Both the position numbers and the translations under genes were made by a program. Shown piece by piece: positions 22,611 to 62,389 of a DNA stretch of 64,000 nt (the first letter of the stretch is position 1; each line of letters starts with the position of its first letter). Below the pieces are notes generated by a model. That model was not told the DNA's origin. It was given only the letters and a program-made list of their open reading frames with translations, and did not search any database. Origin of the DNA: an uncultured Cytophagia bacterium (lineage in GTDB: Bacteria > Zhuqueibacterota > Zhuqueibacteria > Oceanimicrobiales > Oceanimicrobiaceae). The stretch spans positions 60,062 through 124,061 of the forward strand of contig CAZIKB010000003.1 in the NCBI GenBank assembly GCA_964539665.1. Reading direction: 5' to 3'.

Positions 22611-22611
22611 T

Positions 22612-27620: not shown

Positions 27621-27621
27621 T

Positions 27622-37248: not shown

Positions 37249-38628
37249 ATGTCTTTTAAAAAACCAAATATAATTTTAATTATGATAGATTGCGGGCGGG
37301 CTGATCATTTTTCTATTTATAATGATAGTAAAAATACGACTCCAAATTTAAAAAAAATAGCTGCGGAAAGCATGGTTTACAATAATGCTATCTCACCTGC
37401 CGGTTGGACCTTGCCAACCCATTCATCAATATTTACTGGTGTTTATCCCTCGCAACACGGCGCCCACAATGAAAATCATCAACTCTCAAATGAATACCCA
37501 ACGCTTGCAGAATTGCTTGTTGAACAAGGGTACAAGACTTTTGGAATCTGTACTATAGATTGGCTAAGTCAGGCTACCGGAGTAATTAGAGGATTCCAGG
37601 AATTTGATAACTTACATTTTAGTAAGTCAAAATTAATATTGAAAAGAATGTTACAATACCCCATAATTGGCGGGAAGGACTGCTGGGGATATGAAACCAA
37701 CAGAAAAGCGAAAAAATGGCTAAAACAAAATGATTCAGGCAATCCATTTTTTATGTATCTCCATTATAATGAATTGCATCTGCCTTACAACATACCTGAA
37801 AAAATATTGAAGAATTTTTTACCGGAAGATGTGACGGTTGCTAAGGCATTAAAAATTAATCAAGATGCCAAAAAATATTATGCCGGTATTGCAAAAATGA
37901 GTGCAGAGGATTTTAAAATACATAAAGCATTGTATGACGCCGGATTGAAATACACTGACGATTTAATAGGGCAATTGATTGATTTCTTAAGAAAGCAAGA
38001 TATTCTTGATAACACAATTCTTGTCATCACAAGTGACCACGGTGAAAGCTTAGGCGAACACGGACATTTTGACCATTATTACGTCCTTTATGAATCCCTG
38101 CTCCATGTGCCTTTAATGGTTAGATATTTCCCTGTTTTTGGCTCGGGAAAGTCAGATGCGCTTGTGCAAACTATTGATCTATATCCAACTTTATTACAAT
38201 TAGCCGGTGTACCAATTGAAAAATATGAACATCACGCTGCGTTAACCCTTCCCCCGGTTGGAAAAAATAAAGGGCGAGAATATGCGTATGCTGAACGCTT
38301 TCAGGATTTAAAAGGTTTAAAGGAAAGCTTCAAAAATCATGATTTATCACATTTGGAAAAATATGAGCAGGAACGTCTGACTGTTATTAGAGGCGAGCGA
38401 TATAAGCTTATTTATTCTATGCAAGGTCGTCATGAATTGTTCGATTTACACAATGATCCCCGCGAAGAAGAAAATATATTATTAAAAGAACCGGGAATAG
38501 CAGAAATCATGATGGATAAACTAAAAGAGTGGCAATCATCATTTCCATTAAAACAAACAGAAGGAGAAGAAGCATATTTTGATAAAGAGGCTGTTGAACG
38601 TCTAAAAGCATTGGGATATCTTGGTTAA
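37249..38628 (+). CDS. sulfatase-fold (PF00884-type) hydrolase/transferase, Thr nucleophile, no TM or signal peptide; LGY tail
   Basis: IILIMIDCGRADHF, TSDHGESLGEHG and ELFDLHNDPREEENI are family motifs. The FGly site reads T-L-P-T-H-SSIFTG instead of C/S-x-P-x-R. Ends ...AVERLKALGYLG. Confidence 0.8.
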   Translation: MSFKKPNIILIMIDCGRADHFSIYNDSKNTTPNLKKIAAESMVYNNAISPAGWTLPTHSSIFTGVYPSQHGAHNENHQLSNEYPTLAELLVEQGYKTFGICTIDWLSQATGVIRGFQEFDNLHFSKSKLILKRMLQYPIIGGKDCWGYETNRKAKKWLKQNDSGNPFFMYLHYNELHLPYNIPEKILKNFLPEDVTVAKALKINQDAKKYYAGIAKMSAEDFKIHKALYDAGLKYTDDLIGQLIDFLRKQDILDNTILVITSDHGESLGEHGHFDHYYVLYESLLHVPLMVRYFPVFGSGKSDALVQTIDLYPTLLQLAGVPIEKYEHHAALTLPPVGKNKGREYAYAERFQDLKGLKESFKNHDLSHLEKYEQERLTVIRGERYKLIYSMQGRHELFDLHNDPREEENILLKEPGIAEIMMDKLKEWQSSFPLKQTEGEEAYFDKEAVERLKALGYLG

Positions 38629-45854: not shown

Positions 45855-47513
45855 ATGAACAAAACAAATCATAGAGGAATTTTATTCTTTTTGAAGATAG
45901 GTATAATATCCGGTTTAATGTATGGCTTAATTTTAGGCTTGGTGAGATTATTAAGTCATGACGCTGTAAGAGCCTACTATTCAGCAAATTTTACAGATGT
46001 CCTGTTTTCATATACACAGGATTTTCTTAATCAAACCGTCATAATAACTTTGCTCGTATTTATTGTAATTGAAATGACTTTCTATTTTTTAAACAAATTA
46101 TTTGCAACCGCAGATAATAAGATAGTAAAATATTCAAGAATGATCGCGATTAATGGATTTTTCTTTTTATTAATTTTCTATTATTTAAATATTCAACACT
46201 GGTTTCCATCGATGTTGTCTAATAGCGCTTTATTGTACTACATAATTATTCTCGCGGGCAATGCTTTATTACTGTTATTATTCAATCGAATCAGAAACAA
46301 AATAGTTGTTCATGATTCTTTTAAATCCATTAAATTGCCAGTAATTACTGTTATCGTTTTATTATTGTTTAGCAATGTATTTAGTTATTTTCAAAAGAGT
46401 AAATTAAAAGCTGAAACACCGATAAATGTCATAATGATTGTGATTGATGCCCTGCGCGCCGGGCAGTTAGGTTGTTACGGATATGATCTGCCTACAACTC
46501 CGAACATCGATGCATTTGCTCAAGAAAGCCTTAGATTCACGAGCAGCTTTTCACCGAGCAACCATACTAAACCTTCCACAGCATCGCTTTTTACTTCGCT
46601 CTATCCTTCGCAACATAACGTTATTCTAGGAAATAGGTCAAATAATTCCGGGGAGTATTTCTCAGATGTTTTAGATGAATCATTCAAAACGATTGCAGAA
46701 TATTTGTATGAAGCAGATTATAACACGGCCGGGTTTCTAAACCAGGGTCAATTGCGTAAATATTTGGGATTTGCACAGGGATTTATCTATTATAATTCCC
46801 GGTTAGGAAGGGCGCCGCAAATTAATCGTGAATTTTTGCGTTGGCTGCCCATGAATAAACATAGAAAATTTTTTGCATACATACATTATTTGGATGTACA
46901 CGGCCCTTATGATCCGCCTGAGAAATATCGAAAAATATTTAATGTGAATGAGCTGACCAGCGAAATTCCGGAGCGTGCTAAAAATTGGCGAAAATTTAAA
47001 AAAGACTTTGAGAGCGGTGCTTTAGAATTTACGCCTGAGGACCTGGAAAATTTGAAAGCGCTTTACAATGCTGAACTTAAATCCGTTGATGATCAGCTTG
47101 GAATACTTTTTCAGGAATTGAAAAGGCAAGGAGTATATGAAAACAGTCTAATCATAATCACGGCTGACCACGGTGAGTCGTTTGTTGAACATGGCGAAAT
47201 AGATCATGGCTCCACTTTGTTCGATGAAGTTTTACGCGTACCTTTAATAATCCATTATCCTAACCAGGAAAAAACCGGCGTAGTAGATGCAAATGTGCAA
47301 ACTCTTGATTTACTGCCGACCATTTTAGATTATTTAAATATTACGCCTTCAAAAGACTTGATGGGACAAAGTATTTTAAAGTATTCAAATGGCAGCATTG
47401 AGCACGATGAATATCCTATTTTCTGTGAAAGAAATAATCTGGTCTCATTGATCTTTGGTAAAGATAAATATATTTTTGATAAAATAGCCAGACGGGGGAA
47501 CTCTATAACTTAG
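45855..47513 (+). CDS. sulfatase-fold paralog with multi-TM N-terminus, Thr nucleophile; reading frame broken near 47481 (see next feature)
   Basis: VIMIVIDALRAGQLG, TADHGESFVEHG, FGly site T-K-P-S-T-ASLFTS. The ORF ends ...KYIFDKIARRGNSIT*, while the homologous C-terminus continues in another frame. Confidence 0.75.
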   Translation: MNKTNHRGILFFLKIGIISGLMYGLILGLVRLLSHDAVRAYYSANFTDVLFSYTQDFLNQTVIITLLVFIVIEMTFYFLNKLFATADNKIVKYSRMIAINGFFFLLIFYYLNIQHWFPSMLSNSALLYYIIILAGNALLLLLFNRIRNKIVVHDSFKSIKLPVITVIVLLLFSNVFSYFQKSKLKAETPINVIMIVIDALRAGQLGCYGYDLPTTPNIDAFAQESLRFTSSFSPSNHTKPSTASLFTSLYPSQHNVILGNRSNNSGEYFSDVLDESFKTIAEYLYEADYNTAGFLNQGQLRKYLGFAQGFIYYNSRLGRAPQINREFLRWLPMNKHRKFFAYIHYLDVHGPYDPPEKYRKIFNVNELTSEIPERAKNWRKFKKDFESGALEFTPEDLENLKALYNAELKSVDDQLGILFQELKRQGVYENSLIIITADHGESFVEHGEIDHGSTLFDEVLRVPLIIHYPNQEKTGVVDANVQTLDLLPTILDYLNITPSKDLMGQSILKYSNGSIEHDEYPIFCERNNLVSLIFGKDKYIFDKIARRGNSIT

Positions 47514-47692
47514 AAATAGATCCGGGAGAGCGGAATAAAATTAATTCCCGGAATAGTGAATTAGAGCAGAAAATGAAAGCTATGGTTTTAGAATGGAGTG
47601 AGGCCATGAAACTCGTTAGTAAAAAGTCAGAAGGTACTAAATTAGATAAAGAAACCATCGAAAAACTTAAAAGTCTGGGATATATCAAATAA
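47483..47692 (+). other. displaced 3' segment of the 45855 sulfatase-fold gene (frame -1 relative to the upstream part)
   Basis: Translates NSQTGELYNLEIDPGERNKI...KETIEKLKSLGYIK*, matching the ELY(N/D)LxxDPxE box and LGY tail of the two paralogs. Junction is GATAAAATAGCC, an A4 run where A5 would restore the frame. Confidence 0.75.
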
Positions 47693-48290: not shown

Positions 48291-48590
48291 ATGTCGGAAC
48301 AGAACCGAAAAAGAGTAATTGGTAAGGCAATTACTTATAGAGGACTTGGCACATTAGTTACTATATCAGTAATATATATTTTCACTGGAAAATTGGCGCT
48401 TTCATTTGGTGTCGGACTTGTTGAGGTCGTTGCTAAAATGCTTTTTTATTACCTGCATGAACGACTTTGGGAGAAAATATCATGGGGTAAAGATAAACAT
48501 CCTCTTGCTGGAATCCCTGTTAAAAAGGAGCTTGAACCTGAAGACAAAGTATTGCTTGAAGAGAGATTAAAAGAGCTTGGATATTTATAA
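48291..48590 (+). CDS. DUF2061-family small membrane protein with C-terminal LGY tail
   Basis: KAITYRGLGTLVTISVIYIFTG...KMLFYYLHERLWEKISWG is the DUF2061 pattern, a family I recall as linked or fused to APS kinases. Ends ...LEERLKELGYL. RBS GAGGAAA. Confidence 0.7.
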   Translation: MSEQNRKRVIGKAITYRGLGTLVTISVIYIFTGKLALSFGVGLVEVVAKMLFYYLHERLWEKISWGKDKHPLAGIPVKKELEPEDKVLLEERLKELGYL

Positions 48591-48611
48591 AAATCGAATT
48601 ATTGGGAGCAA

Positions 48612-50795
48612 ATGATGAATCGAAAATACTCGTTAATTACTTTACTCATTTTATTGGTATTCTTAATTATCGATGCACAGCCTGCTTTTGCATATATCGG
48701 CCCCGGCGCCGGTTTTGCATTTTTAACTTCATTTGCAATGCTATTTGCCAGTTTCTTTATGGCTTTTTTTACATTGCTAACCTGGCCTTTCCGGGTTTTT
48801 TTACGGTTTTTCAAAAGAAGAAAAGCTTTAGCCAGAGCTAAAACAGATCGGGTTGTGATTCTGGGCCTTGACGGTCTTGACCCAACTATCACAGAACGCA
48901 TGCTACAGGAAGGTAAATTACCAAATTTGAAAAAACTTAAAGAGCAAGGTTCTTACAAACATTTACAGACCACTTATCCAGCTCTCTCGCCAGTTGCCTG
49001 GTCAGCCTTTGCAACTGGAGTTAATCCTGGTCGACATAACATTTTTGATTTTCTTTCACGCAATCGATTCAACTATTTACCCGAATTATCCTCTTCAAAA
49101 GTTGGGTCTCCAAATCGAAAAATATCCCTGGGAAAATTCGAAATCCCGCTTGGCAAACCGATTGTTCGATTATTACGTCGCAGCAAAAGCTTCTGGACAA
49201 TATTGGGAGAGAACGGTATTTTCAGTCATGTACTTCGTGTACCAATCACTTTCCCACCTGAAAAATTTAACGGAGCGTTACTTTCAGCGATGTGTACTCC
49301 GGACCTCTGGGGAACGCAAGGCACTTTTTCCTACTTCACGACTGATACAACTAATAAAAAATTTAAAGAGGGAGGAGAGACTGCAGTTGTGAAATGGGTA
49401 GGCGATAGAATTGAGGGATTTATTAAAGGCCCTGAGAACTCCATTACTAAAAAGCATGAGTCGATGAAGCTCCCTTTTGAAGTAAAGATTTTGAGTGATG
49501 ACGAAATAGAACTGATAATAGAAAAAAAGAAATACAACCTAAAAAAGAAAAAATACACCGATTGGATTGAATTGAAATTTAAAGCCGGAATGGGGATCAA
49601 AGTACATGGTATTGCACGATTTTACCTGCTTGAAACCAATCCAGTTTTTAGATTGTATATGACGCCCATCAATATCGATCCGGAAAAGCCAGCGCTGCCA
49701 ATTTCTTACCCTTATTTCTATTCCGTTTATCTTTCTAAGTTATTCGGGAAATTCGCGACATTGGGTTTAGCGGAAGATACCTGGGCTTTGAACGAGGGCG
49801 TTCTTGATGAGGAAGCTTTTTTAGAGCAGGCATATCTAATTCATGAAGAACGTGAAAAACAATTTTTTCATACTTTAAGCAAAACCAGAAAAGGTTTGTG
49901 TTCAGTGGTATTTGATGCCAGTGATCGAATTCAGCACATGTTTTTCCGAACGCTTGAAGATGACCATCCTGCCAACCGAGGCAAAGAAACTGAAAAATAT
50001 AAAAATGTTATTGCCGATATGTATGAGCAAATGGATGACCTCGTTGGTAGAACCATGGCTAAAATAAATAAAGATGAGGTTTTTATTGTGCTCTCTGATC
50101 ATGGTTTTAAATCATTCAGACGCGGTATAAACCTGAATTCCTGGTTAAAAGCTAATGGTTATCTAAAGCTGAAAGACGGTAGGGAAGAGAGTGGGGAATT
50201 TTTTCAGGGTGTTGATTGGGAAAATACAAAAGCCTATGCATTCGGACTGACGGGTATTTACATCAATGTTAAAGGCCGGGAAAAGAACGGCATTGTCGCA
50301 CCAGGTGAAGAATTAAAAACACTCAAAGATGAGTTGATTGCTAAACTTTCCGGGATGTTAGATCCTGAAACCGGGGAAGTTGCCATTATCGAGATGTTTG
50401 ATAATAGTGAAATTTACAAGGGACCTTATACTAACAATGGACCCGACTTGATTAGTGGCTACAATAGCGGCTATCGAATTTCATGGAATGGCGCAACCGG
50501 GAATGTCAATGAGCAAATTTTTGAAGACAACGTTAAAGCCTGGAGCGGCGATCATTGTGTTGACCCGAGGCTTGTCCCCGGGGTGATTTTTAGCAACCAA
50601 AAAATTATGGCCGCTAAACCAGGTTTGATGGATATAGCGCCAACAGTTCTTGAATTATTTGGAATAACTAAACCAGGCTATATGGAAGGCCAGGATATCT
50701 TAAGTAGTGAACCAGAAGAGACAGCAAAAGATGAAGATATTCCCACCATAGTGCCAACAGTAAAAAAAACGGAGGTGGCTTCGGTCAATGAATAA
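48612..50795 (+). CDS. alkaline-phosphatase-superfamily protein (type I phosphodiesterase/NPP-like, COG3379-like), long form with N-terminal membrane hairpin
   Basis: VVILGLDGLDP, SPVAWSAFATG (Ser at the nucleophile position), LSDHGF, WSGDHC. N-terminus has two hydrophobic segments followed by RFFKRRKALARAK. Confidence 0.75.
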   Translation: MMNRKYSLITLLILLVFLIIDAQPAFAYIGPGAGFAFLTSFAMLFASFFMAFFTLLTWPFRVFLRFFKRRKALARAKTDRVVILGLDGLDPTITERMLQEGKLPNLKKLKEQGSYKHLQTTYPALSPVAWSAFATGVNPGRHNIFDFLSRNRFNYLPELSSSKVGSPNRKISLGKFEIPLGKPIVRLLRRSKSFWTILGENGIFSHVLRVPITFPPEKFNGALLSAMCTPDLWGTQGTFSYFTTDTTNKKFKEGGETAVVKWVGDRIEGFIKGPENSITKKHESMKLPFEVKILSDDEIELIIEKKKYNLKKKKYTDWIELKFKAGMGIKVHGIARFYLLETNPVFRLYMTPINIDPEKPALPISYPYFYSVYLSKLFGKFATLGLAEDTWALNEGVLDEEAFLEQAYLIHEEREKQFFHTLSKTRKGLCSVVFDASDRIQHMFFRTLEDDHPANRGKETEKYKNVIADMYEQMDDLVGRTMAKINKDEVFIVLSDHGFKSFRRGINLNSWLKANGYLKLKDGREESGEFFQGVDWENTKAYAFGLTGIYINVKGREKNGIVAPGEELKTLKDELIAKLSGMLDPETGEVAIIEMFDNSEIYKGPYTNNGPDLISGYNSGYRISWNGATGNVNEQIFEDNVKAWSGDHCVDPRLVPGVIFSNQKIMAAKPGLMDIAPTVLELFGITKPGYMEGQDILSSEPEETAKDEDIPTIVPTVKKTEVASVNE

Positions 50796-52782
50796 GATTA
50801 AAGTTGTATTTGGTATAATAGCTATCCTATTTTTAGTGTCATTGATTAGCTTATCTGTTTTCTGGGGATGCAAAAAAAGCAATGCAAGCGCAATTGAAAA
50901 AAAAGTGATTGTTATTGGCTTTGATGGTATGGATCCAAGACTTTTGTCAAAATATATGAGTGAGGATCGACTTCCAAATTTTACTAAATTAGCTGAAACG
51001 GGCGATTATAAACCGCTTGGTACAAGTATTCCTCCACAGAGTCCGGTTGCCTGGTCAAATTTCATAACAGGTATGAATCCTGGCGGACATGGCATATTTG
51101 ATTTCCTTCATCGTGATCCAAATACAATGCTGCCACTCTCATCTACATCAAAAACGGAAGAGTCTGGCAAATCAATAAAGATCGGCAAATGGGTAATTCC
51201 ATTATCGGGAGGGAAAGTAGTGAATCTACGTAAAGGGCAGGCCTTCTGGGAGAAACTTGAAGATTCAGGCGTCCCAACGACAATTTTCAAAATACCATCA
51301 AATTTTCCACCGGTAAAAACAGACGGCAAAGCTTTGAGTGGTATGGGTACTCCTGATTTACAGGGTACATTTGGTACGTTTTCTTATTATACGGACGACC
51401 CTCCGCCAAATCGCGACGATATTTCCGGCGGTGTGGTTTATCCCGTCAAAATACTAAACAATGAAGTAGAAGCTCAATTAACAGGTCCAGCAAATACATT
51501 TTTAGAAGATGCCCCGAATGCTACTATTCCGTTTAAAGTGTGGAGTGATCCCGAAAATCCTGTAGTAAAAATATCAGTGCAGGATCACCAGATTTTGTTG
51601 AAAGAGAAAGAGTGGAGTGACTGGATTCAGGTGAAATTTGATATTATTCCTGTTCTGGAATCTGTAACTGGCATCTGTAGATTCTATCTGAAAGAAGTAC
51701 GACCGCATTTCAAATTATATGTTACTCCGATAAACATTGATCCTTCAAATCCAGCATTACCCATTTCAACACCTGATGATTATGCAAAAGAACTGTACGA
51801 CCACTGCGGATACTTTTATACGCAAGGCATGCCTGAGGATACAAAAGCGTTGTCCTGGAATGTATTTGATCATGATGATTTCCTGAAACAAGGCTTGAAT
51901 GTACTTGATGAACGATTACGTCTTTTCAATTATGTGTTTGACACGTTTGAGCAAGGTCTGCTGTTTTTTTATTTTTCAACTACCGATTTAAATGGACACA
52001 TGTATTATAATATGATTGATCCTGAACATCCGGGGTATGATGCAAAACAAGCGCAAAAATATGGTGACGTTATGAGTAAGTTATACGAAAGCGCTGATAA
52101 AGCAGTTGGCCACGTACTCGAGCGAATAGATGAAAACACTACACTTATAGTCATGTCAGATCATGGATTTGCACCGTTCAGACGCGCTGTGCATTTAAAT
52201 ACCTGGCTAAAAAATGAAGGATACATTACTTTAATTGATGAATCAAAGCAAGCCGAAAATGAATACTTTCAGAATGTCAATTGGAGCCGAACGCAAGCTT
52301 ATGGATTAGGTTTCAATGGGCTTTATGTAAATTTAAGAGGTCGGGAATCTTATGGTTTTGTTGCTCGACGGGAAAAGAAAGCCCTTTTGAATGAAATTTC
52401 CGAGAAGCTTTTAGCTCTACGCGATCCCAAAGATAATACAAGAATTATCGAACGGGTTTATCTGGCTGAAGAAATTTATTCTGAGCAATATTTAGAAAAT
52501 GCACCTGATCTCATTGTCGGTTACAACCGTGGATACAGAGCTTCATGGGAAACGACAATTGGTAACTTTCCACTGGAATGGATTTCGGACAATATGGATC
52601 CCTGGAGCGGTGATCATTGTATGGCAGCAGAGCTTGTACCTGGTGTAATTTTATCAAATAAAAAAATAGACGCTCAAAATCCTAAACTTTATGATATGGC
52701 CCCTACAATTCTTAACGAATTTAACGTTGAAAAGAGTGACGACATGGTGGGGCAAGTGATATTCAACAACATAGTAAATTAA
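50788..52782 (+). CDS. alkaline-phosphatase-superfamily protein (COG3379-like), long form with single N-terminal TM or lipoprotein-like signal
   Basis: VIVIGFDGMDP, SPVAWSNFITG, MSDHGF, WSGDHC. N-terminus ILFLVSLISLSVFWGC. 8-nt overlap with the upstream paralog. Confidence 0.75.
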   Translation: MNKIKVVFGIIAILFLVSLISLSVFWGCKKSNASAIEKKVIVIGFDGMDPRLLSKYMSEDRLPNFTKLAETGDYKPLGTSIPPQSPVAWSNFITGMNPGGHGIFDFLHRDPNTMLPLSSTSKTEESGKSIKIGKWVIPLSGGKVVNLRKGQAFWEKLEDSGVPTTIFKIPSNFPPVKTDGKALSGMGTPDLQGTFGTFSYYTDDPPPNRDDISGGVVYPVKILNNEVEAQLTGPANTFLEDAPNATIPFKVWSDPENPVVKISVQDHQILLKEKEWSDWIQVKFDIIPVLESVTGICRFYLKEVRPHFKLYVTPINIDPSNPALPISTPDDYAKELYDHCGYFYTQGMPEDTKALSWNVFDHDDFLKQGLNVLDERLRLFNYVFDTFEQGLLFFYFSTTDLNGHMYYNMIDPEHPGYDAKQAQKYGDVMSKLYESADKAVGHVLERIDENTTLIVMSDHGFAPFRRAVHLNTWLKNEGYITLIDESKQAENEYFQNVNWSRTQAYGLGFNGLYVNLRGRESYGFVARREKKALLNEISEKLLALRDPKDNTRIIERVYLAEEIYSEQYLENAPDLIVGYNRGYRASWETTIGNFPLEWISDNMDPWSGDHCMAAELVPGVILSNKKIDAQNPKLYDMAPTILNEFNVEKSDDMVGQVIFNNIVN

Positions 52783-52795
52783 AAAGGAGTTTTAT

Positions 52796-52987
52796 ATGTT
52801 AGGTCCCAAAATTAAATTAGAAAAAGAATTATATGATCGAATTAAAAAATTTTCTGAAATCGCTGGTTATTCTTCTGTTGAAGAATTTGTAACTCATGTG
52901 CTGGAAAAAGAACTGTCGACAATAGATGACTCTGAATCAGAAGAAGAAGTGAAAAAACGATTACAGGGATTGGGATATTTGTCTTAA
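52796..52987 (+). CDS. 63-aa ribbon-helix-helix-like protein with acidic linker and LGY tail
   Basis: KIKLEKELYDRIKKFSEIAGYSSVEEFVTHVLEKEL has the strand-helix-helix pattern of CopG/NikR-type RHH domains. It is followed by DDSESEEEVKKRLQGLGYLS. Confidence 0.5.
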   Translation: MLGPKIKLEKELYDRIKKFSEIAGYSSVEEFVTHVLEKELSTIDDSESEEEVKKRLQGLGYLS

Positions 52988-53038
52988 AATATTTCATAAT
53001 TCCAATAATACCATAAATCCACGGAGTTAGTATAAAAT

Positions 53039-53869
53039 ATGTTGAATATATTGAACTATTTTTTTAATATAATTTTTAATGTTATATTTTTTCCATTTAA
53101 AAATATGGATCCGATCTGGGGCATGTTAGTGGTTTCGTTTGTTACAGGGATTGTGATGTTATTTGTTTTTAAGGCAACTTCCGATCAGATTGGTATTAAA
53201 AAAGCAAAAAATTTGGTAAAGGGCCATTTCCTGGCCATTCGACTCTATCGGGACGATATCACACTTATGTTTGTTACCATGAAAAATATTATCATGAGTA
53301 ACCTGCTTTACATGAAAAAATCTTTTCGCCCCATGCTTTTTCTAATAATTCCTGTGGGTGTCATTTTAATTCACCTTGGCACCAGGTATGAATTCCGGCC
53401 ATTCAAAGTTGGGGAGACAATTATTGTTTCCATACGTCTGGATGACAAAATTCAGGATCTGAATCTCAACAATGTTGTTTTTGAACTTCCAGATGGTTTA
53501 ACCTCCGACATGCCGCCCGTTCGAATTCAGCAATTACGGGAAATTAACTGGCGTATCAAAGCTGAAAAGCCAGGCATCTATGATCTGATTTTTAAATACA
53601 ACAACAGTAATGTAACAAAGCGACTTGAAGTCAGAGATTCATTGATACCGCTTTCGAAAGAAATTGCCCAGAACAGTTTATCTGTGACTCTAATGAATCC
53701 CGGGGAATCGAGTTTGCCCGGATCTTCATTCGCTTCTCACATTGCAATCGGTTACCCCAAAAGAGATTTCAAATTCTTAGGATTCAGTTTCCATTGGTTA
53801 ATTGCTTTCTTTGTTTTTAGTCTAATTGCGGCATTTTCATTTAAAGGCGTGCTTGGCGTTGAAGTTTAG
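53039..53869 (+). CDS. hypothetical membrane protein (3-4 TM helices + central soluble beta-rich region), family not recognised
   Basis: Long ORF with coding-like composition. TM segments at WGMLVVSFVTGIVMLFVF, MLFLIIPVGVILI and HWLIAFFVFSLIAAFSF. Confidence 0.5.
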   Translation: MLNILNYFFNIIFNVIFFPFKNMDPIWGMLVVSFVTGIVMLFVFKATSDQIGIKKAKNLVKGHFLAIRLYRDDITLMFVTMKNIIMSNLLYMKKSFRPMLFLIIPVGVILIHLGTRYEFRPFKVGETIIVSIRLDDKIQDLNLNNVVFELPDGLTSDMPPVRIQQLREINWRIKAEKPGIYDLIFKYNNSNVTKRLEVRDSLIPLSKEIAQNSLSVTLMNPGESSLPGSSFASHIAIGYPKRDFKFLGFSFHWLIAFFVFSLIAAFSFKGVLGVEV

Positions 53870-53938
53870 GAGATAATTATTTTAAAAAAACAATTTGCAT
53901 GTGATAGAAATCTTTTTTAATATGCCGGTTAAAAAGCG

Positions 53939-54775
53939 ATGAGTTATAAATTTTTATCTACTAAAACAAGTCAGGAACATGATTTAGACCAGTGGCAAAA
54001 TCGTAGCCTCGAAGGTGAAATAAAAAGTTTTGAAGGCCGTACATTAGTTCGTATTTTTAATAAATATTTAAACGGAAAAGAAGCGAAAATCCTTGAAGGA
54101 GGTTGCGGATTTGGTGCTTGGTGTGAGTGGTTCCAAAAACAGGGTTATCAAATATTAGGTATTGAATACGATAATAATATAGTAAAAAGAGCCAAAAAAT
54201 ATAAGCCAGATGTAGCCGTTGAATTAGGCGATATCACCGAAATAAAGTACCCGTCCGATAGCTTTGACGCTTATGTATCATTGGGAGTGATTGAACATTT
54301 TGAACATGGTCCAGAGTCTGCCCTGAGAGAAGCCCATCGAATTCTTAAACCAGATGGCATAGCCTTTGTAACTACGCCTTATTTAACAGTAATCCGAAGG
54401 TTTGTTGCTCATCCGGTTCGCAGCTTGTATTTTTTAATTCGAGAGTTTCGTGGAAAATCAAATTATTTTTGGGAATATCGGTTTACAAAAAATGAATTAC
54501 GTTCTTTTCTTGAGAATACTGGCTTTGAAATTATACATGCGGATATCGACGATTATGAGCATAGGATTAAGAATCGCCACATAGGTCTGTGGGCGGATTG
54601 GTTTTTTTTAAGAAGAAAAAATGGTGCAATCTGGGAGTTAAATGGTTTAGGAAAATTTGTGCTCAGAGTTGTCAATCTTTTTCCTGATTCCTGGTACTGC
54701 TCGGGTTTGCATCTGGTTGCAAGGGCAAAAAAGAACGATATCACTGAAAATAGTGAAATTACTAAATCCAAATAA
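53939..54775 (+). CDS. class I SAM-dependent methyltransferase
   Basis: [15 protein letters not shown] (motif I), [22 protein letters not shown]. Confidence 0.8.
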
Positions 54776-54798
54776 TTATAAAATATGAAAGGAATTAC

Positions 54799-57435
54799 AT
54801 GGAATTAATCGCACCTCACGGTGGCAAACTTGTTGATCAGGTTTTACGTGGCGAAGAACGTGAAGCAGCTTTGAACAAAGCTAAGCATCTAAAAAAAATT
54901 GCAATCAACGCAACAGCAATTTCTGATGTAGAACTCATTGCAGTTGGTGCATTCAGCCCATTAACGGGATTTATGAAACAGGCTGATTATGAAAATGTAG
55001 TTACGAATATACGTTTAGCAAATGGCGTGGTCTGGTCGATACCAATAACTTTGTCAGTTACCAGTGAAATTGCTGATGAAGTTAAAATTGACGAAGAAAT
55101 TGTATTAACCAATGATGCCGGATTGCAATTAGCATTATTAAAAGTTGAGGAAAAGTTTACTTACGATAAAACCCGGGAAGCGGAATTTGTATATAAAACA
55201 ACCGAAGAAGCCCATCCTGGCGTTGCCCGGCTTTACAAGCAGGATGATGTGTTATTAGGTGGTGAGATTAGGCTAATCAATCGGGTGCCGGATCAACCAT
55301 TTCCGGATTTTCGACACGATCCTGTTCAGAGTCGGCGTATGTTTGCCAGTCGCGGTTGGAAAAAAATTGTAGGATTTCAAACTCGCAATCCAATACATCG
55401 TGCGCATGAATACATACAGAAATGTGCATTGGAAATTGTCGATGGTTTATTTTTACATCCATTAGTTGGGGAGACTAAAAAGGATGATATTCCCGCGGAT
55501 ATTCGCATGCAAAGTTATGAGAGCCTGCTGCGAGATTATTATCCGCCAAACCGTACACTTTTAGGGGTATATCCGGCCGCCATGCGCTATGCCGGTCCAA
55601 GAGAGGCTATTTTTCATGCGATTGCGCGAAAGAATTATGGCTGCAGCCATTTTATAGTCGGTCGAGACCATGCCGGGGTTGGTAATTATTATGGAACGTA
55701 TGATGCTCAAAAAATATTCGATGATTTCAAAAAGGAAGAAATAGATATCACACCTTTATTTTTTGATCATACATTTTATTGCAAAAAATGCGGTGCTATT
55801 GTTTCTGACAAAACCTGTCCGCATGATCAATCTGAGCGTTTGATATTAAGTGGCACTCAGGTTCGTGAAATGCTCACTCGCGGGGAAGCGCCACCACCAG
55901 AATTAACCCGCCCGGAAGTGGCGAGTATACTGATCGAAGGTTATCGCAAAGAAGGCAAATCAGTTCAACCAGAAAAAAAACCGGAAGCCAAAAGAGCACC
56001 AGCTAAATCCGAACCAAAGGCAGCGGTTGCAAGGGCGTCTAAAAATGGCAAGCGGAAAGTATTTGTCATCGGCCTTGATTGTGCCACACCCGAATTGATT
56101 TTTGACCAGTACAAATCGGAGCTTCCAAACTTTCGGAAATTAATGGAAAGCGGTCTTTACGGAGAATTAGAAAGCAGCATTCCGCCAATTACCGTTCCAG
56201 CCTGGTCGTCCATGATGAGCAGTAAAGATCCGGGGCAGTTGGGCTTTTACGACTTTCGTAATCGTGCAGATTACTCCTATGAAAGCATGTATATTGCCTC
56301 ATCCAGGTCAGTAAAAACGGATCGGGTCTGGGATATTCTCTCTCGTTCAGGAAAACAGGTATCGGTTGTGGGAGTGCCTCAAACCTATCCTATCCAGCCC
56401 GTTAAAGGAAACATGATTTCTTGCTTTCTGACTCCTTCTACTGAAAGCCAGTACACCTATCCTGAAGAACTTAAATCTGAAATCCAGGAGTTGGTGGGAG
56501 ACTACATGATTGATGTGCCTAATTTTAGAACCGAGAACAAGGATTTGCTTTTGCGGCAAATTTATGAAATGACCGAAAAGCGTTTTCGGCTTGTTCGCTA
56601 TCTAATGCGGAAAAAACCGTGGGACTTTTTTATGTTTGTCGAAATGGGTACAGATCGCATTCATCACGGATTCTGGAAGTATATGGATACCGGCCATAAA
56701 AAATATGAACCCGGTAATCCTTATGAAAACTCAATAAAGGAATATTATAAATATCTGGATCGGGAAATCGGCGAGGTACTTGATAACCTTGACGACGATA
56801 CATCCGTTTTGGTGGTTTCAGACCATGGCGCCAAAAAAATGGATGGCGGTATATGCATTAATGAATGGCTCATTGAAAATGGCTATCTTATTTTAAAAGA
56901 GAAACCGGCTTCACTTATGCCACTGGAGAAAGCAGAAATAGACTGGCCCAAAACGAAAGCATGGGGCGCTGGCGGATATTTTGGCCGAATTTTTCTTAAT
57001 GTCCGCGGCCGCGAACCTGAAGGCGCGGTTGCACCTGAAGAGTATGAAACCATTCGGAATGAATTGATTCATAAGCTGGAAAATATAAAGGACGAAAAAG
57101 GCCAGCCATTAACTACCAGAGTTATAAAGCCAAATGAGGTTTATAAGGAAGTAAACAATATTCCTCCGGATTTAATGGTCTATTTTGGTGATTTGAATTG
57201 GCGGTCGGTTGGCAGTGTCGGATTAAATCGAATACACACTTTTGATAAAGAGCTGGGACCTGATGATGCTAACCATTCTCAGCACGGTATTTTTGTCATG
57301 CATGATCCACAAAATCCTGCAAATGGCAAGAGAATTCACGGCATGCAATTGGTTGATGTTGCGCCAACTATTTTAGATTTATTTGGTGACGAAATTCCAA
57401 ATGATATGATCGGTAAAGTTATCAGGAACAAATAA
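54799..57435 (+). CDS. sat: fusion protein: ATP sulfurylase (Sat) + Lys/Pro/Ala-rich linker + COG3379-like alkaline-phosphatase-superfamily domain
   Basis: aa 1-~385: [15 protein letters not shown] (HxxH), [30 protein letters not shown]. Linker [37 protein letters not shown]. aa ~421-878: [28 protein letters not shown]. Confidence 0.85.
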
Positions 57436-57461
57436 GGCGTTAGAGGAAACACGCTGAGGAT

Positions 57462-57494
57462 ATTTGCCACACACTTCCAGGGTGTGTGGCAAAT
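57462..57494 (+). terminator. perfect 13-bp stem hairpin between sat-fusion and cysC (attenuator or mRNA-stabilising element; weak U tract)
   Basis: ATTTGCCACACAC-ttccagg-GTGTGTGGCAAAT followed by CCAATTTTAAATT. Confidence 0.45.
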
Positions 57495-57559
57495 CCAATT
57501 TTAAATTAAAATCAATTAATTAGTTGTAATGATATAAATTTTATGGAGGTTTCAATTTT

Positions 57560-58183
57560 ATGAAGACATCTAAAAAAGCATGTACAATTTGGTTCACGGG
57601 TTTACCTTCCTCTGGAAAATCTACTTTGGCGGAGATGCTGGAAAAGGAGTTAAAAAACCGCGGAGAAAGGGTCGAAATTTTAGATGGCGATGTAGTCCGT
57701 ACGAATTTAAGCAAAGGCTTGACCTTTAGTAAGGAAGATCGGGACATCAATATCCGGAGAATAGGATTTGTTTGTCATTTGTTGACAAGAAATGGTGTGT
57801 TCGCAATTTCTGCAGCAATATCTCCTTATAGAAATATACGAGATGAAAACCGTGCACTCATAGGCAACTTTGTCGAGGTTTTTGTTGATTGTCCACTGGA
57901 TGAATGTATTAAAAGAGATGTAAAAGGTCTTTATAAAAAAGCATTGGCCGGCGAAATAAAGGAATTTACCGGCGTTTCTGATCCTTATGAAGAACCTCTC
58001 AAACCTGAAATTGTGATTGACGCCCACGGAGAAGAACCCAAAGATAGCCTTCAAAAAATACTGGCGAGATTAGTAGAATTAGGTTACTTATCCAATAACG
58101 GTCTTGATACATCTGACAAAGCATATTCTGATGAAGAAGAAGAGGTAGTGAGAAAGCGGCTGAGTGATCTGGGCTATATTTAA
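57560..58183 (+). CDS. cysC: adenylyl-sulfate (APS) kinase with a 30-aa C-terminal extension ending in an LGY tail
   Basis: P-loop [42 protein letters not shown]. The core ends ...[12 protein letters not shown], then [37 protein letters not shown]. Confidence 0.9.
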
Positions 58184-59529
58184 TGTTAAATATTTTTAAG
58201 AAAAATAAGGGATCAAAAGTATTTGTTCTGTCTATCGACGGTGTTCCCTTTTCATTTATGCAGGAAAACATAGAAAAGGGTCATTTTCCTAACTTCAAAC
58301 GTTTTTTGAATATGGGTGATTTTAAAAGGATGAATTCAGTGCAACCGGTGATATCATCGGTTGCCTGGTCCTCTTTTATGACAGGCAAGAATCCGGCTAA
58401 GCATAATATTTATGGATTTGTGGATCAAATGCCGGGTTCAAATAATGTATATATTCCTACTTCGCTCAACATGACCAGTAAAACCATTTGGGATATCATG
58501 AGTGAGGCTGGGAAAAAAGTGTTTGTGATGAATGTTCCTGTAACCTATCCACCACGCGCGGTAAATGGAATTATGATTGGCTGTTTCCTTTGCACTCAAA
58601 TTGAGAAAATAGCTTCCCCGCCTGCTATTTCTGCTGAATTAAAAAATATGGGCTATAAGATTGATGCAGACGCCTGGATCGCCCGTGAAAATTTAGACAA
58701 ATTCCTGGAGGAAGTAAATACTACCCTGGAAAAGCGAACCGAGGCTATGTTTCATTTTTTGGCAAAGGAAGATTGGGATTATTTTCACACCCACATCATG
58801 GAAACAGACCGGATAAATCACTTTTTATGGGAGCACATGGAACTCGATGAGCCGAAATATGCTAAAGCTTTTTTCCAATTTTATAAAAGGTTGGATGATA
58901 TTTTAGGTGAAGTTGAACAAAAAATCGGCGAAGACGCGGAATTTATAGTTCTGTCTGATCACGGTTTTTGTACTATTAAGAAAGAAATCTATCTCAATAA
59001 TTATTTGGAAGAAGCCGGTATATTGAAATTTAATAACTCTCAGCCGGAAAGTATCGCGGACATGCATGAAGATTCCACGGCCTACAGCTTGATTCCAGGC
59101 AGGGTATTTGTGAATCTAAATGGGCGCGAGCCGAACGGTTCGATATCGCCGGGGAATTATGAAAAGACCCGGGAAAAACTCACTGAGACGCTTCTTAATT
59201 TAAAGGAAAAAGACACCGGCGAATTTATTATCAAGGAAGTTATCAGGCGCGAAAATATCTACGAAGGTCAAAATATTGGCTCCGCAGCGGACTTAATTGC
59301 TGTTCCACATGATGGTTATGACTTGAAAGGGAACGTGAATAAAGAAGTGTTTGGTGAAAAGGGGGCGCTGGTCGGAATGCATACATTCGAAGATTCACTT
59401 TTATTTGTTCGAAATAAATCTTTGTTAAAACAGAATAATCAATTTTGGATCGGAGATTTGGCTCCAACTATTTTAAATATGATGAATATACCCATCCCAA
59501 ACGATATGGATGGAGTGGCATTAGTTTGA
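58183..59529 (+). CDS. alkaline-phosphatase-superfamily protein (COG3379-like), short cytoplasmic form
   Basis: VFVLSIDGVPF, SSVAWSSFMTG, LSDHGF. TAATG overlap with cysC. No TM segment. Confidence 0.75.
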   Translation: MLNIFKKNKGSKVFVLSIDGVPFSFMQENIEKGHFPNFKRFLNMGDFKRMNSVQPVISSVAWSSFMTGKNPAKHNIYGFVDQMPGSNNVYIPTSLNMTSKTIWDIMSEAGKKVFVMNVPVTYPPRAVNGIMIGCFLCTQIEKIASPPAISAELKNMGYKIDADAWIARENLDKFLEEVNTTLEKRTEAMFHFLAKEDWDYFHTHIMETDRINHFLWEHMELDEPKYAKAFFQFYKRLDDILGEVEQKIGEDAEFIVLSDHGFCTIKKEIYLNNYLEEAGILKFNNSQPESIADMHEDSTAYSLIPGRVFVNLNGREPNGSISPGNYEKTREKLTETLLNLKEKDTGEFIIKEVIRRENIYEGQNIGSAADLIAVPHDGYDLKGNVNKEVFGEKGALVGMHTFEDSLLFVRNKSLLKQNNQFWIGDLAPTILNMMNIPIPNDMDGVALV

Positions 59530-59548
59530 GTAATCTTTGCAGGAAAAA

Positions 59549-60682
59549 ATGACCCAGAAATCACAAATCAATGTTCTTCAGGTTGTAGAGGGACTCAATT
59601 TAGGCGGGGCTGAAATTAAGCTTTTGGAGCTCATCGCCAACATGGATCGCAGCAGATTTAGAACGGTTGTGTGTAGTCTTGGAATGGGTGAAAGAATTAA
59701 AGAAAAAGTAACAGAATTAGATGTTAAATTTGTTAGTCTCGCGAGGAAAAGACGATTTGATCCAATGTTGATATGGAAAGTGGCCAAATTGATTCGTCAG
59801 GAAAATATTGATGTCGTGATGACTACGCTTTTTTATGCTGATGTTGTTGGCGCTTTTGCCCGGCTCTTCAGCCCGACTAAAGCTGTATTCTCCTGGGAAA
59901 CCATATCTGCTCCGGAATGGCTGCTAAAACACAGGCTTTTTGCTTATCGCTTTGCCATGCGATATTGCGATAATATCATTTCAGTTTCACAAGCAACGGC
60001 AAATTGGCTGGTCGAAAAACGCGGTGTCTCAAATGATAAAATAATAGTCATACCGTACGGCGTTAACCTTGATTTGTATCGACAGGGAAAAAATCATGAG
60101 TTGAAACAGAGTTTAGGAATTCATCCTGATACATTTGTAGCTGGGGTAGTGGCGCGACTCCATCCTCAGAAAGGGCACAAATATTTAATTGAGGCGGCTA
60201 AAACAATTGTCCAAAAACATGCAAATATTAAATTTGTATTTGCTGGCGATGGAGAATTAAGAAGTGAATTAGAAAGCCTGGTGCAATCCGCGAATCTTCA
60301 GGATTATTTTCTGTTCTTAGGCTTCAGAAATGATGTGAAAGAACTATTAGGGACGTTTGATGCTTTTGTGCTTCCCTCTTTGTACGAGGGGCTGCCAAAT
60401 GTTATTTTGGAAGCAATGGCAACCGGCCTTCCTGTTGTTGCGACTGCAGTTGATGGCACAGTCGAATTAATTGAAGATGGTGAAACCGGGTTTCTTGTAC
60501 CGCCGAAAGATCCACAGGCTTTAGTGGAAAAAATCTATCAACTAATTCAAGACAAAGACCGAATCTGTAGATTTGGCAAACAAGGGCGTAAACGAGTTGA
60601 GTTAAAATATTCTCTACAGATGCAGGTGAGCAATTTCCAGAATCTATATGAAAAATATGTTTTTAATGGAATTAAAAAATAA
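59549..60682 (+). CDS. GT4 (GT-B) glycosyltransferase
   Basis: VLQVVEGLNLGGAE...PSLYEGLPNVILEAMATGLPVVATAVDGTVELIEDGETGFLV. ATG at 59549 preferred over TTG at 59537. Confidence 0.85.
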   Translation: MTQKSQINVLQVVEGLNLGGAEIKLLELIANMDRSRFRTVVCSLGMGERIKEKVTELDVKFVSLARKRRFDPMLIWKVAKLIRQENIDVVMTTLFYADVVGAFARLFSPTKAVFSWETISAPEWLLKHRLFAYRFAMRYCDNIISVSQATANWLVEKRGVSNDKIIVIPYGVNLDLYRQGKNHELKQSLGIHPDTFVAGVVARLHPQKGHKYLIEAAKTIVQKHANIKFVFAGDGELRSELESLVQSANLQDYFLFLGFRNDVKELLGTFDAFVLPSLYEGLPNVILEAMATGLPVVATAVDGTVELIEDGETGFLVPPKDPQALVEKIYQLIQDKDRICRFGKQGRKRVELKYSLQMQVSNFQNLYEKYVFNGIKK

Positions 60683-61275: not shown

Positions 61276-62013
61276 ATGAAAAACGGATTTAAGGTAGCGA
61301 TTTTAGTTCCGGCATTGAACGAAGCGGATACTATCGAAAATGTTATAAAAGGGATAAAAAAAAACAATCCTGACTTTGACGTTGTTGTAATTGATGATGG
61401 CTCAACCGATAAAACAGCCGAACTGGCTGAACGTGCAGGAGCTGCCGTTCTTTCGCTTACTGTAAATTTAGGTTATGGTGCAGCCCTTCAAACGGGGTAT
61501 AAATATGCATTATTGAATGGATATGATTACACTGTGCAAATTGATGGGGACGGCCAGCACGACCCTAAATATATTAATAATTTAATCGAAACGGTGCAAA
61601 ATGGCACTGATGTAGCCATTGGCTCGAGATTTCTTGATAACCTTGGTAATTACAATCATCCAACCCTTCGCCAGATTGGAATGATGTTTTTCCGATTTTT
61701 AATTTATCTGTTTATCAATCAAAAAATATCAGATCCAACTTCAGGCTTTCAAGCCTTGAATAAAAATGTTATTTCCTATTTCGCGAAGAGCAAACAGTAT
61801 CCTTCGGATTTTCCGGATGCAGATATCATTATCCTGCTGCATTATGCCGGATTTCGAATTTCTGAGGTTCCGGTTGTCATGTTTAGAAACGAAACTGGCA
61901 AATCTATGCATAGTGGATTCAAGCCAATCTATTATATTATTAAAATGCTATTATCCATTTATGCAGTTCTTTTTGGCAACCAAAAACTTACATATACTAA
62001 AAATGCCACTTAA
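61276..62013 (+). CDS. GT2 family glycosyltransferase (short, soluble, polyprenyl-phosphate-sugar-synthase-like)
   Basis: VAILVPALNEADTI...VVVIDDGSTDKT...TVQIDGDGQHDP. Confidence 0.85.
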   Translation: MKNGFKVAILVPALNEADTIENVIKGIKKNNPDFDVVVIDDGSTDKTAELAERAGAAVLSLTVNLGYGAALQTGYKYALLNGYDYTVQIDGDGQHDPKYINNLIETVQNGTDVAIGSRFLDNLGNYNHPTLRQIGMMFFRFLIYLFINQKISDPTSGFQALNKNVISYFAKSKQYPSDFPDADIIILLHYAGFRISEVPVVMFRNETGKSMHSGFKPIYYIIKMLLSIYAVLFGNQKLTYTKNAT

Positions 62014-62389
62014 AGCACAAATTATAATAATCGTTTTAAGTTTATCTCTTTTTCTTTTTGTTTTAAATTTAATTCGAAAACGACAACTAAATATTGAGCA
62101 TTCTATCCTGTGGTTAGTGGTAAGTGTGACGATTTTAATTGCTTCAATCTGGCATAATTTAGCGGACCAGGTTGCATTATTTTTAGGCATTGAATATCCT
62201 CCAGCTTTATTTTTATCCGTTGCTATTTTCTTTTCTCTCGCAATACTTATGCACTTTTCAATTGAACTTTCAAAATTAAAAGATCAAAACAAAACTTTAA
62301 TACAGGAACTGGCAATTTACAAGAACTTAATTAAAAAACTTGAAAAAAAGATAACGGAAGTTGATGAGAGTCTTAACAGTAACCCATGA
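62003..62389 (+). CDS. DUF2304-family small membrane protein
   Basis: MPLKAQIIIIVLSLSLFLFVLNLIRKRQLNIEHSILWL... then a coiled C-terminus. The GT2 + DUF2304 pairing is common. The track ORF from 61766 is an in-frame read-through of the GT2 3' end. Confidence 0.65.
   Translation: MPLKAQIIIIVLSLSLFLFVLNLIRKRQLNIEHSILWLVVSVTILIASIWHNLADQVALFLGIEYPPALFLSVAIFFSLAILMHFSIELSKLKDQNKTLIQELAIYKNLIKKLEKKITEVDESLNSNP

Follow-up and report, generated by a model that had tools for sequence, protein, structure and literature searches.

Which enzyme uses the activated sulfate in a bacterial polysaccharide locus that encodes its own sulfate-activation genes and no recognisable sulfotransferase? This question is raised by a stretch of 64,000 nucleotides of contig CAZIKB010000003.1 (the window in what follows), from an uncultured bacterium whose closest named relatives belong to candidate division KSB1. 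The window is one polysaccharide locus with all genes on the plus strand, in which Pfam recognises GT2 and GT4 glycosyltransferases, two Wzx-like flippases, Wzy, PMT_2 proteins, a GH39 protein, and acetyl- and methyltransferases, together with carAB and two carbamoyltransferases. The block at 48291-59529 is the sulfation module of this locus of at least 64 kb. Its ATP sulfurylase (Sat) and its adenosine 5'-phosphosulfate (APS) kinase (CysC), which are predicted to produce APS and 3'-phosphoadenosine 5'-phosphosulfate (PAPS), respectively, lie among four paralogs of the alkaline phosphatase (AlkP) superfamily, named here AlkP1 to AlkP4. Tentatively, we favour PAPS-dependent sulfuryl transfer by these AlkP-fold enzymes as the answer.

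The centre of the block is a gene for a fusion of Sat with AlkP3 (54799-57435; PUA_2, E 1e-57; ATP-sulfurylase, E 1.3e-97; PF01663, E 3.4e-48), in which the ATP sulfurylase occupies residues 1-390 and is followed by a Lys/Pro/Ala linker and a core COG3379 domain. It is followed by cysC (57560-58183; APS_kinase, E 1.4e-61), the product of which ends in an acidic linker and a C-terminal tag (...[19 protein letters not shown]), and by the gene for AlkP4, a short core COG3379 paralog of 448 residues with Ser58 as nucleophile (58183-59529; PF01663, E 1.5e-43), whose start overlaps the cysC stop codon in a TAATG read directly in the sequence. Upstream are the two long COG3379/PF01663 paralogs, AlkP1 (48612-50795; 727 residues; PF01663, E 4.5e-28) and AlkP2 (50788-52782; 664 residues; PF01663, E 9e-41), with open reading frames (ORFs) that overlap by 8 nucleotides; AlkP1, AlkP2 and AlkP4 are all untagged. 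Family calls for Sat and CysC were made at the curated cut-offs of Pfam and NCBIfam, with Sat scoring 584 bits against NF003166 (cut-off 387) and CysC 268 bits against NF002059 (cut-off 244) and 222 bits against TIGR00455 (cut-off 139). The gene order, coordinates, overlaps, Sat::AlkP fusion and CysC given in the preliminary description of this DNA were all reproduced, the ORFs exactly. Its count of four AlkP-like paralogs also stood, but three PF00884 genes upstream had been missed, and the locus holds seven AlkP-superfamily genes with a Ser/Thr nucleophile (four PF01663 and three PF00884).

No match to Sulfotransfer_* or PAPS_reduct was found by Pfam among the window ORFs of at least 150 residues (E below 0.01/0.001); the canonical families Sulfotransfer_1/2/3/4/5 and Stf0 were all without a match in that set, and jackhmmer seeded with a Sulfotransfer_3 protein returned nothing from the six-frame ORFs of the window. 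The same methods do detect sulfotransferases in six related loci (L005, L013, L014, L016, L059 and L067). A sulfotransferase hidden in the membrane protein unk276 described below, in small ORFs or in the unassigned neighbours of L006 and L007 was considered and rejected, with no signal in relaxed Pfam searches (E up to 5). An Rfam scan of the window gave no match. The proposals that PAPS is made here for sulfation rather than assimilation, and that the window lacks a conventional sulfotransferase, are therefore both upheld, the former by the lack of a detectable PAPS reductase and the position of the genes within a polysaccharide locus. No canonical sulfotransferase was found either in L090, a close relative of the locus in the window that was used for comparison, or in L002-L004, L006-L008 and L091, where Sat and CysC are both complete in only some of L003/L004, L006, L007 and L091. 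Every other type of tailoring enzyme is encoded in the loci around these modules. It had been stated beforehand that a conventional sulfotransferase within or beside the locus would count against an AlkP-based mechanism; none is present in the window, but of the 88 related loci scored for this (L001-L088) about 10 do encode a canonical one.

The association of AlkP genes with sulfate activation extends far beyond this contig. Orthologs of AlkP4 number in the thousands, with named sources that include KSB1, Zixibacteria, Syntrophobacterales, Anaerolineae and Terriglobia. Synteny was scored in 80 metagenomic loci retrieved with an AlkP4 alignment, those with enough upstream sequence being taken as informative. 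Of the 59 informative loci, 42 had the CysC gene immediately before that of the AlkP4 ortholog; after clustering at 90% identity the count was 37 of 52. Chance would give a single-copy gene such a position in less than 0.1% of cases. AlkP3 lay upstream of CysC in 24/40 informative loci, and Sat was present in 16/26. The recurrent core, found in many phyla, is (Sat)-AlkP3-CysC-AlkP4. Moreover, the Sat::AlkP3 architecture is present in at least 120 protein clusters (all of the 120 best-scoring ones) at 60-78% identity, and at least five proteins show a fusion of AlkP3 to CysC (P0241, P0260, P0262, P0273 and P0284), P0262 being that of the cultured Desulfotomaculum copahuensis. The adjacency and the fusions to both Sat and CysC bear out the expectation that sat/cysC and COG3379 genes are associated beyond chance, and on the same grounds the idea that the paralogs are phosphodiesterases unrelated to sulfate was rejected as the principal explanation. 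In loci that hold all four genes, the median identity to the proteins of the window was 58% for Sat, 60% for AlkP3, 58% for CysC and 49% for AlkP4; the core AlkPs evolve as slowly as Sat and CysC.

The module was also detected in annotated neighbourhoods of Syntrophobacterales, Zixibacteria, Anaerolineae and others, mostly inside glycan loci, and its composition varies. The locus of the sulfate reducer D. copahuensis (L091, LYVF01000166.1) encodes GT2, GT4, Wzx, a methyltransferase, a Thr-type sulfatase-like protein, AlkP3::CysC and a tagged small ribbon-helix-helix (RHH)-like protein near rml genes, and no Sat, AlkP4 or canonical sulfotransferase was found within the approximately 15 kb of contig available. 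The Syntrophobacterales cassette (L002) reads AlkP3-DUF2061-CysC-AlkP4, with no Sat in the sequence available. Within the anammox family Brocadiaceae, an operon (L092, JALDQZ010000003.1, 10001-16020) reads AlkP3 (tagged)-AlkP4-GT4-GT2-GT2 with no Sat or CysC nearby, so the AlkP3/AlkP4 pair follows glycosyltransferases and not only PAPS synthesis. Where AlkP4 lacks an upstream CysC, it is found in glycan operons beside an epimerase, GT2, GT4, GT9 or TMEM260-like gene. The multiplicity of the paralogs, seven in the window and six consecutive COG3379 genes in L052, resembles that of tailoring enzymes.

All four PF01663 paralogs score far above the gathering cut-off of 23 bits (99, 141, 165 and 150 bits for AlkP1 to AlkP4). 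When they are aligned, the metal ligands (Asp, Asp/His, Ser-Asp-His-Gly and His) are invariant, and the nucleophile column holds Ser or Thr followed by x-x-A-W-S. This agrees with the earlier reading that ligands and nucleophile are kept in all four, but the GxDGxDP motif that was also attributed to all of them is present only in the two long paralogs, the fused one having GLDCATP and the short one SIDGVPF. The nucleophile of AlkP3 is the Thr in PPITVPAW, and its metal ligands are intact. The six metal ligands and the Thr/Ser nucleophile are invariant in 57 AlkP4 orthologs (D19, S58, D209, H213, D259, H260 and H400), as are the catalytic residues across 38 AlkP3 orthologs, and because of this invariance AlkP3 and AlkP4 are predicted to be active enzymes rather than scaffolds. 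AlkP4 has the fold of nucleotide pyrophosphatase/phosphodiesterase (NPP) and of the phosphonoacetate hydrolase PhnA, and the core fold of the AlkPs is closest to the NPP clade. By manual motif alignment, the NPP residue in contact with the transferred phosphoryl group, the Asn of HGIxxN, corresponds to a Phe in all four paralogs (H[NG]I[FY][DG]F). The paralogs belong to PF01663 and to the NPP structural clade, outside every characterised subfamily. When they were compared with CysQ-type enzymes and inorganic pyrophosphatases, they proved to have the AlkP fold and not the Inositol_P or pyrophosphatase fold; if they catalyse hydrolysis of 3'-phosphoadenosine 5'-phosphate (PAP) or pyrophosphate (PPi), they are analogs of CysQ or pyrophosphatase and not members of those families.

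Since neither AlkP3 nor AlkP4 has a hydrophobic N-terminal segment, both are probably cytoplasmic. The N-terminus of AlkP1 (48612-48850) consists of two hydrophobic helices joined by AYIGPGAG and followed by eight Lys/Arg residues, a motif also present in the ortholog from L075; the arrangement suggests a conserved re-entrant membrane anchor, with the catalytic domain left in the cytoplasm. AlkP1 also contains an insertion of about 165 residues. AlkP2 carries a single N-terminal hydrophobic segment and its topology is ambiguous; the former assignment of this paralog as an exported protein is not secure, as its lipobox is atypical and more Lys/Arg residues follow the segment than precede it.

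Across phyla, CysC and several other proteins of these loci end in a common C-terminal tag with the consensus YSxEEEExVxxRLxxLGY[LIV], followed by 0-3 further residues and preceded by an acidic disordered linker. The tag was scored in six-frame ORFs of the 88 loci as a terminal LGY[LIVMFA] plus 0-3 residues. Only 89 of 10,507 ORFs end with this pattern, and 84 of them fall into five classes: CysC (51 of 55 ORFs), non-core COG3379 paralogs of about 560 residues (13/30), Thr-type sulfatase-like proteins (9/15), the small RHH-like protein (7/7) and DUF2061 (4/4). In the same loci the tag was found on none of 23 Sat, 33 core AlkP3 or 84 core AlkP4 sequences; the tagged AlkP3 of Brocadiaceae comes from outside that set. 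Six tag sites are present on the plus strand of the window, at 38600-38628, 45617-45645, 47660-47692, 48560-48590, 52955-52987 and 58150-58183, belonging to the sulfatase-fold proteins Sulf1 and Sulf2, the frameshifted tail of Sulf3, DUF2061, the 63-residue protein small63 and CysC. The tag is missing in four of the five AlkP3::CysC fusions, as expected if its usual role is to hold CysC to a partner AlkP. In the AlphaFold2 model of the sole tagged fusion (P0241) both domains are confident, linker residues 663-685 are disordered and the tag forms a helix at residues 689-701 with a predicted local confidence (pLDDT) of about 88, which suggests that the tag is a docked helix. The tag resembles a duplicate of the last helix of CysC itself (…LVELGYL), and a tag-like LQxLGYE is also the C-terminus of the Sulfotransfer_3 protein whose gene separates cysC from the gene for AlkP4 in L013/L014.

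Degenerate CysC proteins of about 155-170 residues were observed at 2398-2880 of L015, 9433-9903 of L016, 2050-2571 of L018 and 9395-9907 of L019. All four lack the central substrate region, and the one in L016 also has a substituted P-loop Lys; each retains the C-terminal tag and its place, with AlkP4 on one side and AlkP3, or the position of AlkP3, on the other. To judge from these sequences, they look like a kinase turned adaptor.

The three PF00884 genes upstream, at 37249, 43768 and 45855, belong to the same system as the four PF01663 paralogs. Sulf1 (37249-38628; Sulfatase, E 3.5e-54) is a soluble sulfatase-fold protein of 459 residues with T-L-P-T-H at the active site and the tag ...ERLKALGYLG; it has no predicted signal or transmembrane (TM) segment and reaches no NCBIfam cut-off. 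Sulf2 (43768-45645; E 9.1e-52; T-W-P-S-L; tag ...KRLRALGYVK) has an N-terminal domain of 4-5 TM segments, and Sulf3 (45855-47692; E 3e-47; T-K-P-S-T; tag ...EKLKSLGYIK) an N-terminus of five, although by hydropathy the TM counts of both are ambiguous (4 vs 5). TLPTH of Sulf1 aligns with SGPSR of a solved sulfatase, which puts Thr where formylglycine would form and leaves the Arg without a counterpart. All three proteins have T-x-P-x-[H/L/T] in place of the formylglycine motif C/S-x-P-x-R (from the alignment for Sulf1 and by direct reading for Sulf2 and Sulf3), and formylglycine is therefore predicted to be unable to form in them. Models of the LtaS/EptA type in NCBIfam score 20-50 bits against cut-offs of 500-1250. 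The Sulf3 ORF proper (45855-47513) is frameshifted near 47490, its tagged tail lying in the next frame (47483-47692); tblastn with the ortholog from L012 places the frame switch at about 47486-47498, and it is either a sequencing or assembly error or the mark of a pseudogene.

On the reading that we favour, the AlkP-fold enzymes would be the PAPS-consuming end of the pathway, kept beside Sat and CysC through fusion, translational coupling or the tag. A metal-activated Ser/Thr alkoxide would attack the sulfur of PAPS, PAP would depart, stabilised by the second metal, and the covalent sulfo-enzyme would hand the sulfuryl group to a hydroxyl on a glycan, either lipid-linked or nascent, on the cytoplasmic side of the membrane, a location with which the YIGPGAG hairpin of AlkP1 with its eight Lys/Arg residues and the hairpin of DUF2061 are in keeping. 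The acceptor of AlkP3 and AlkP4 would be a conserved one, and variable enzymes would add further, acceptor-specific sulfates: the tagged Sulf1-3 here, the 560-residue COG3379 proteins elsewhere, plus AlkP1 and AlkP2. DUF2061 may tether the assembly to the membrane. That these proteins form a new class of glycan sulfotransferase on the alkaline-phosphatase (NPP and sulfatase) fold, using a metal-activated Ser/Thr, a covalent sulfo-enzyme and a membrane-tethered Sat/CysC assembly joined by fusion and docking helix, is a bolder statement than PAPS-dependent transfer as such, and we put it forward a little more hesitantly, with a substantial chance of being right.

Several observations support sulfuryl transfer by the AlkPs, among them the synteny and fusions, the invariant catalytic residues, the glycan operons, the paralog multiplicity and the modelled tag helix described above. 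The large and apparently complete loci of the window and L090 encode Sat, CysC and every other kind of tailoring function with no recognisable sulfotransferase, and the tag found on CysC recurs on the variable paralogs and on the canonical sulfotransferase of L013/L014. Alkaline phosphatase and NPP enzymes have promiscuous sulfatase activity, and the AlkP-superfamily transferases LtaS, EptA and OpgB transfer phospho-groups in a ping-pong manner through a covalent Ser/Thr intermediate. Other considerations weigh against it. We know of no AlkP-superfamily member that acts as a PAPS sulfotransferase; an alkyl sulfate on Ser/Thr is chemically a poor sulfuryl donor; and a nucleotide-pyrophosphatase fold naturally attacks phosphorus, so it would hydrolyse APS or PAPS instead of transferring sulfate. 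AlkP3 and AlkP4 are conserved to the same degree as Sat and CysC, a level seen more typically in enzymes with universal small-molecule substrates such as PAP, PPi or APS. Sulfotransfer_3 proteins are encoded in AlkP3/AlkP4 operons (L013/L014 and L015-L019) and within a few kb in L005, L059 and L067: the order in L014 is CysC-Sulfotransfer_3-AlkP4, that in L016 is Wzz-AlkP3-degenerate tagged CysC-AlkP4-Wzx-two Sulfotransfer_3 genes, and L015, L018 and L019 probably share the L016 arrangement. Because both types of gene share operons in some loci, the AlkPs do not simply replace canonical sulfotransferases. A sulfotransferase may also be encoded elsewhere in this genome, as the search covered 64 kb of a 130-kb contig. 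The sulfuryl-transfer role first suggested for the paralogs is plausible, partly supported and unproven, and the conservation of the two core ones fits a small-molecule substrate or a conserved acceptor equally well.

Among the other explanations, the one to be taken most seriously, although we think it less likely than sulfuryl transfer, is that AlkP3 and AlkP4 are accessory hydrolases of PAPS supply and that the true sulfotransferase, canonical or unrecognised, is encoded elsewhere. They might convert PAP to AMP and phosphate as an analog of CysQ, hydrolyse PPi and so pull the Sat reaction, or hydrolyse APS or PAPS for control. Such roles would suit the NPP/PhnA nucleotide-pyrophosphatase fold, the conservation level shared with Sat and CysC, and the adjacency or fusion of the AlkPs to both enzymes; the operon orders of L014 and L016 can be read as producer-consumer-cleanup, and ATP sulfurylase-pyrophosphatase fusions occur in stramenopiles and haptophytes (PMC2275785). 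However, the sulfate-reducer cassettes and fusions with no Sat in the available sequence (L002 and L091) give a pyrophosphatase nothing to pull, so that a PPi-pulling role is not general, and a role of AlkP3 solely as a pyrophosphatase was rejected because AlkP3 persists, fused to CysC, in such loci. A PAP/PAPS phosphatase fused to the kinase that forms PAPS risks a futile cycle, and hydrolysis leaves much else unaccounted for: the Brocadiaceae operon and the AlkP4 glycan operons in which neither CysC nor a sulfotransferase was detected are hard to explain, the locus in the window would be left with its own Sat and CysC and without any sulfotransferase over at least 64 kb, and nothing would require four to seven paralogs per locus.

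Two further possibilities place the AlkPs in glycan decoration by other routes. That they are phospho-group transferases or phosphodiesterases acting on the glycan (adding glycerol-phosphate, phosphoethanolamine or sugar-phosphate, or serving as a phosphomutase on a sugar phosphate), and are merely co-encoded with sulfation genes that decorate the same polymer, would rely on the established chemistry of AlkP members with a Thr/Ser nucleophile (LtaS, EptA, OpgB, cofactor-independent phosphoglycerate mutase and phosphopentomutase). The multi-TM N-termini of Sulf2 and Sulf3, like those of LtaS and EptA, their weak NCBIfam similarity to EptA/MCR, the family label phosphohydrolase/phosphomutase in the JGI annotation and the occurrence of AlkP4 in CysC-less glycan loci all point the same way. 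We nevertheless regard this as improbable, as it explains neither the fusions of AlkP3, which join it to Sat in at least 120 clusters and to CysC in at least five, nor the translational coupling of AlkP4 and CysC in 71% of loci, nor the tag in common with CysC, and no NCBIfam transferase model reaches its cut-off. Least probable of all, in our judgement, is a lipid-linked relay in which the core AlkPs load sulfate from PAPS on a carrier (e.g., polyprenyl phosphate to give a phosphosulfate) and the membrane-anchored Sulf2 and Sulf3, perhaps with AlkP2, pass it to the polymer after export. A conserved carrier would account for the conservation of the core paralogs, Sulf2 and Sulf3 resemble LtaS/EptA-type enzymes that use lipid donors at the outer face, AlkP2 may be exported, and the block includes the membrane components DUF2061 and unk276. 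Yet such a relay is purely speculative, with no carrier of this kind known; the presence of the same tag on the cytoplasmic CysC and Sulf1 and on Sulf2 and Sulf3 argues for a single compartment, and the ambiguous TM counts of the last two leave their topology an uncertain basis for it.

The remaining genes of the block also recur with the cassette. DUF2061 (48291-48590; Pfam E 1.8e-18) is by hydropathy a two-helix membrane hairpin with a cytoplasmic tail that bears the tag ...ERLKELGYL. The RHH-like small63 (52796-52987; 63 residues; DUF7557 match below threshold; tag ...KRLQGLGYLS) is of a type that adjoins the cassette in several phyla, and a homolog is encoded directly upstream of AlkP3::CysC in D. 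copahuensis. The membrane protein unk276 (53039-53869) has three hydrophobic segments by hydropathy and no Pfam or NCBIfam match even at E 5; its homologs occur in L011, L012, L076 and L090, and in KSB1-like loci it accompanies small63, AlkP2 and the methyltransferase. That S-adenosylmethionine-dependent methyltransferase (53939-54775; Methyltransf_11, E 4.1e-21) lies directly 5' of Sat::AlkP3, an arrangement repeated in L006 and L001, and is found a few genes upstream in L011, L012 and L091. Downstream, a GT4 glycosyltransferase (59537-60682; Pfam E 7.8e-47) follows AlkP4, as it does in L009, L017, L090 and L092. Orthologs of AlkP1 are present in L012, L075 and L090, and those of AlkP2 in L011, L012, L076 and L090.

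Elsewhere in the window, carA and carB are followed within 21552-28059 by an O-carbamoyltransferase gene and by a gene for a 145-residue SxtJ-family protein (27622-28059, E 1.3e-12), and a second carbamoyltransferase gene starts at 33947 (33947-35746); the polymer is probably carbamoylated, with carbamoyl-phosphate supplied by the locus itself. Two glycoside-hydrolase-like genes, one for GHL15 with Golvesin_C (38685-40538) and one for GH39 (41923-43731), sit among the sulfatase-like genes and may trim or process the polymer. Beyond the block, a GT2 ORF (61276-62013) and the listed DUF2304 ORF (61766-62389) overlap by about 250 nucleotides; since the DUF2304 protein of L090 is called as 135 residues beginning after GT2, the true start in the window probably lies downstream of the listed one.

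The system can be placed against several known ones. LtaS, EptA/MCR-1 and OpgB work on the outer side of the membrane, where they move phospho-alcohol groups from phospholipids. They share with the present proteins the proposed ping-pong logic, the Thr nucleophile of Sulf1-3 and the multi-TM N-terminus of Sulf2 and Sulf3, whereas here the proposed donor is PAPS and the proposed group is sulfate, and no model of these families in NCBIfam reaches its cut-off. Type I formylglycine sulfatases (PF00884) have the fold and Pfam match of Sulf1-3, which differ from them in lacking C/S-x-P-x-R and in carrying the tag of CysC. Compared with NPP/ENPP enzymes and PhnA, the paralogs show 16-18% identity and no significant sequence match in the Protein Data Bank, and their genomic partners are Sat, CysC and glycosyltransferases. 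The physical coupling of sulfate activation to the handling of its product or by-product has parallels in ATP sulfurylase-pyrophosphatase and APS kinase-ATP sulfurylase fusions (PMC2275785) and in the PAPS synthase-SULT2A1 complex (PMC6016456), but the partner here has an NPP fold and is neither a family I/II pyrophosphatase nor a SULT, it is fused to CysC too, and coupling is also provided by a detachable C-terminal helix tag. The PAPS-dependent sulfated polysaccharide clusters of Vibrio sp. KMM 8419 (a capsular polysaccharide; PMC11641403) and of Synechocystis (synechan, xss; PMC8205485) likewise hold dedicated sulfate-activation genes among glycosyltransferases, flippases and a polymerase, and no PAPS reductase. 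In contrast to those clusters, whose hallmark according to their authors is the Sulfotransfer genes, the window has none of these but seven genes of the AlkP superfamily, including the one fused to Sat. In Haloferax volcanii, Agl7 contributes to the sulfation of DolP-hexose (PMC3892788). Agl7 might be an AlkP- or sulfatase-like protein, a lead on which nothing here depends. Our literature searches on COG3379 and DUF2061 returned no functional literature, and a search combining sulfotransferase, AlkP superfamily and adenylylsulfate kinase returned no AlkP-fold sulfotransferase.

On chemical evidence, sulfated extracellular polymers are common in granular sludges, mats and sediments. Sulfotransferase genes are nevertheless reported to be scarce in communities rich in sulfated extracellular polymeric substances, and according to the authors of that study the known reference enzymes may not be those involved (PMC10483923). 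The cassette is spread over anaerobic and sediment phyla (KSB1, Zixibacteria, Chloroflexota, Desulfobacterota, Acidobacteriota, Brocadiaceae and Firmicutes), and sulfuryl transfer by its AlkPs would, if true, explain sulfated polymers in communities where canonical sulfotransferases are scarce. The candidates are conserved, fused to PAPS-making enzymes and easy to express, and D. copahuensis is a tractable organism that carries AlkP3::CysC. Even if the core pair is hydrolytic, the four-gene cassette, the Sat::AlkP and AlkP::CysC fusions and the docking tag are undescribed in the literature searched, and thousands of genes that now go by no other name than 'alkaline phosphatase family protein' or 'ATP sulfurylase' would receive a new annotation. 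If the AlkPs do transfer sulfate, they would constitute a new class of sulfotransferases and extend a textbook superfamily to a new reaction, with a biotechnology route to sulfated polysaccharides.

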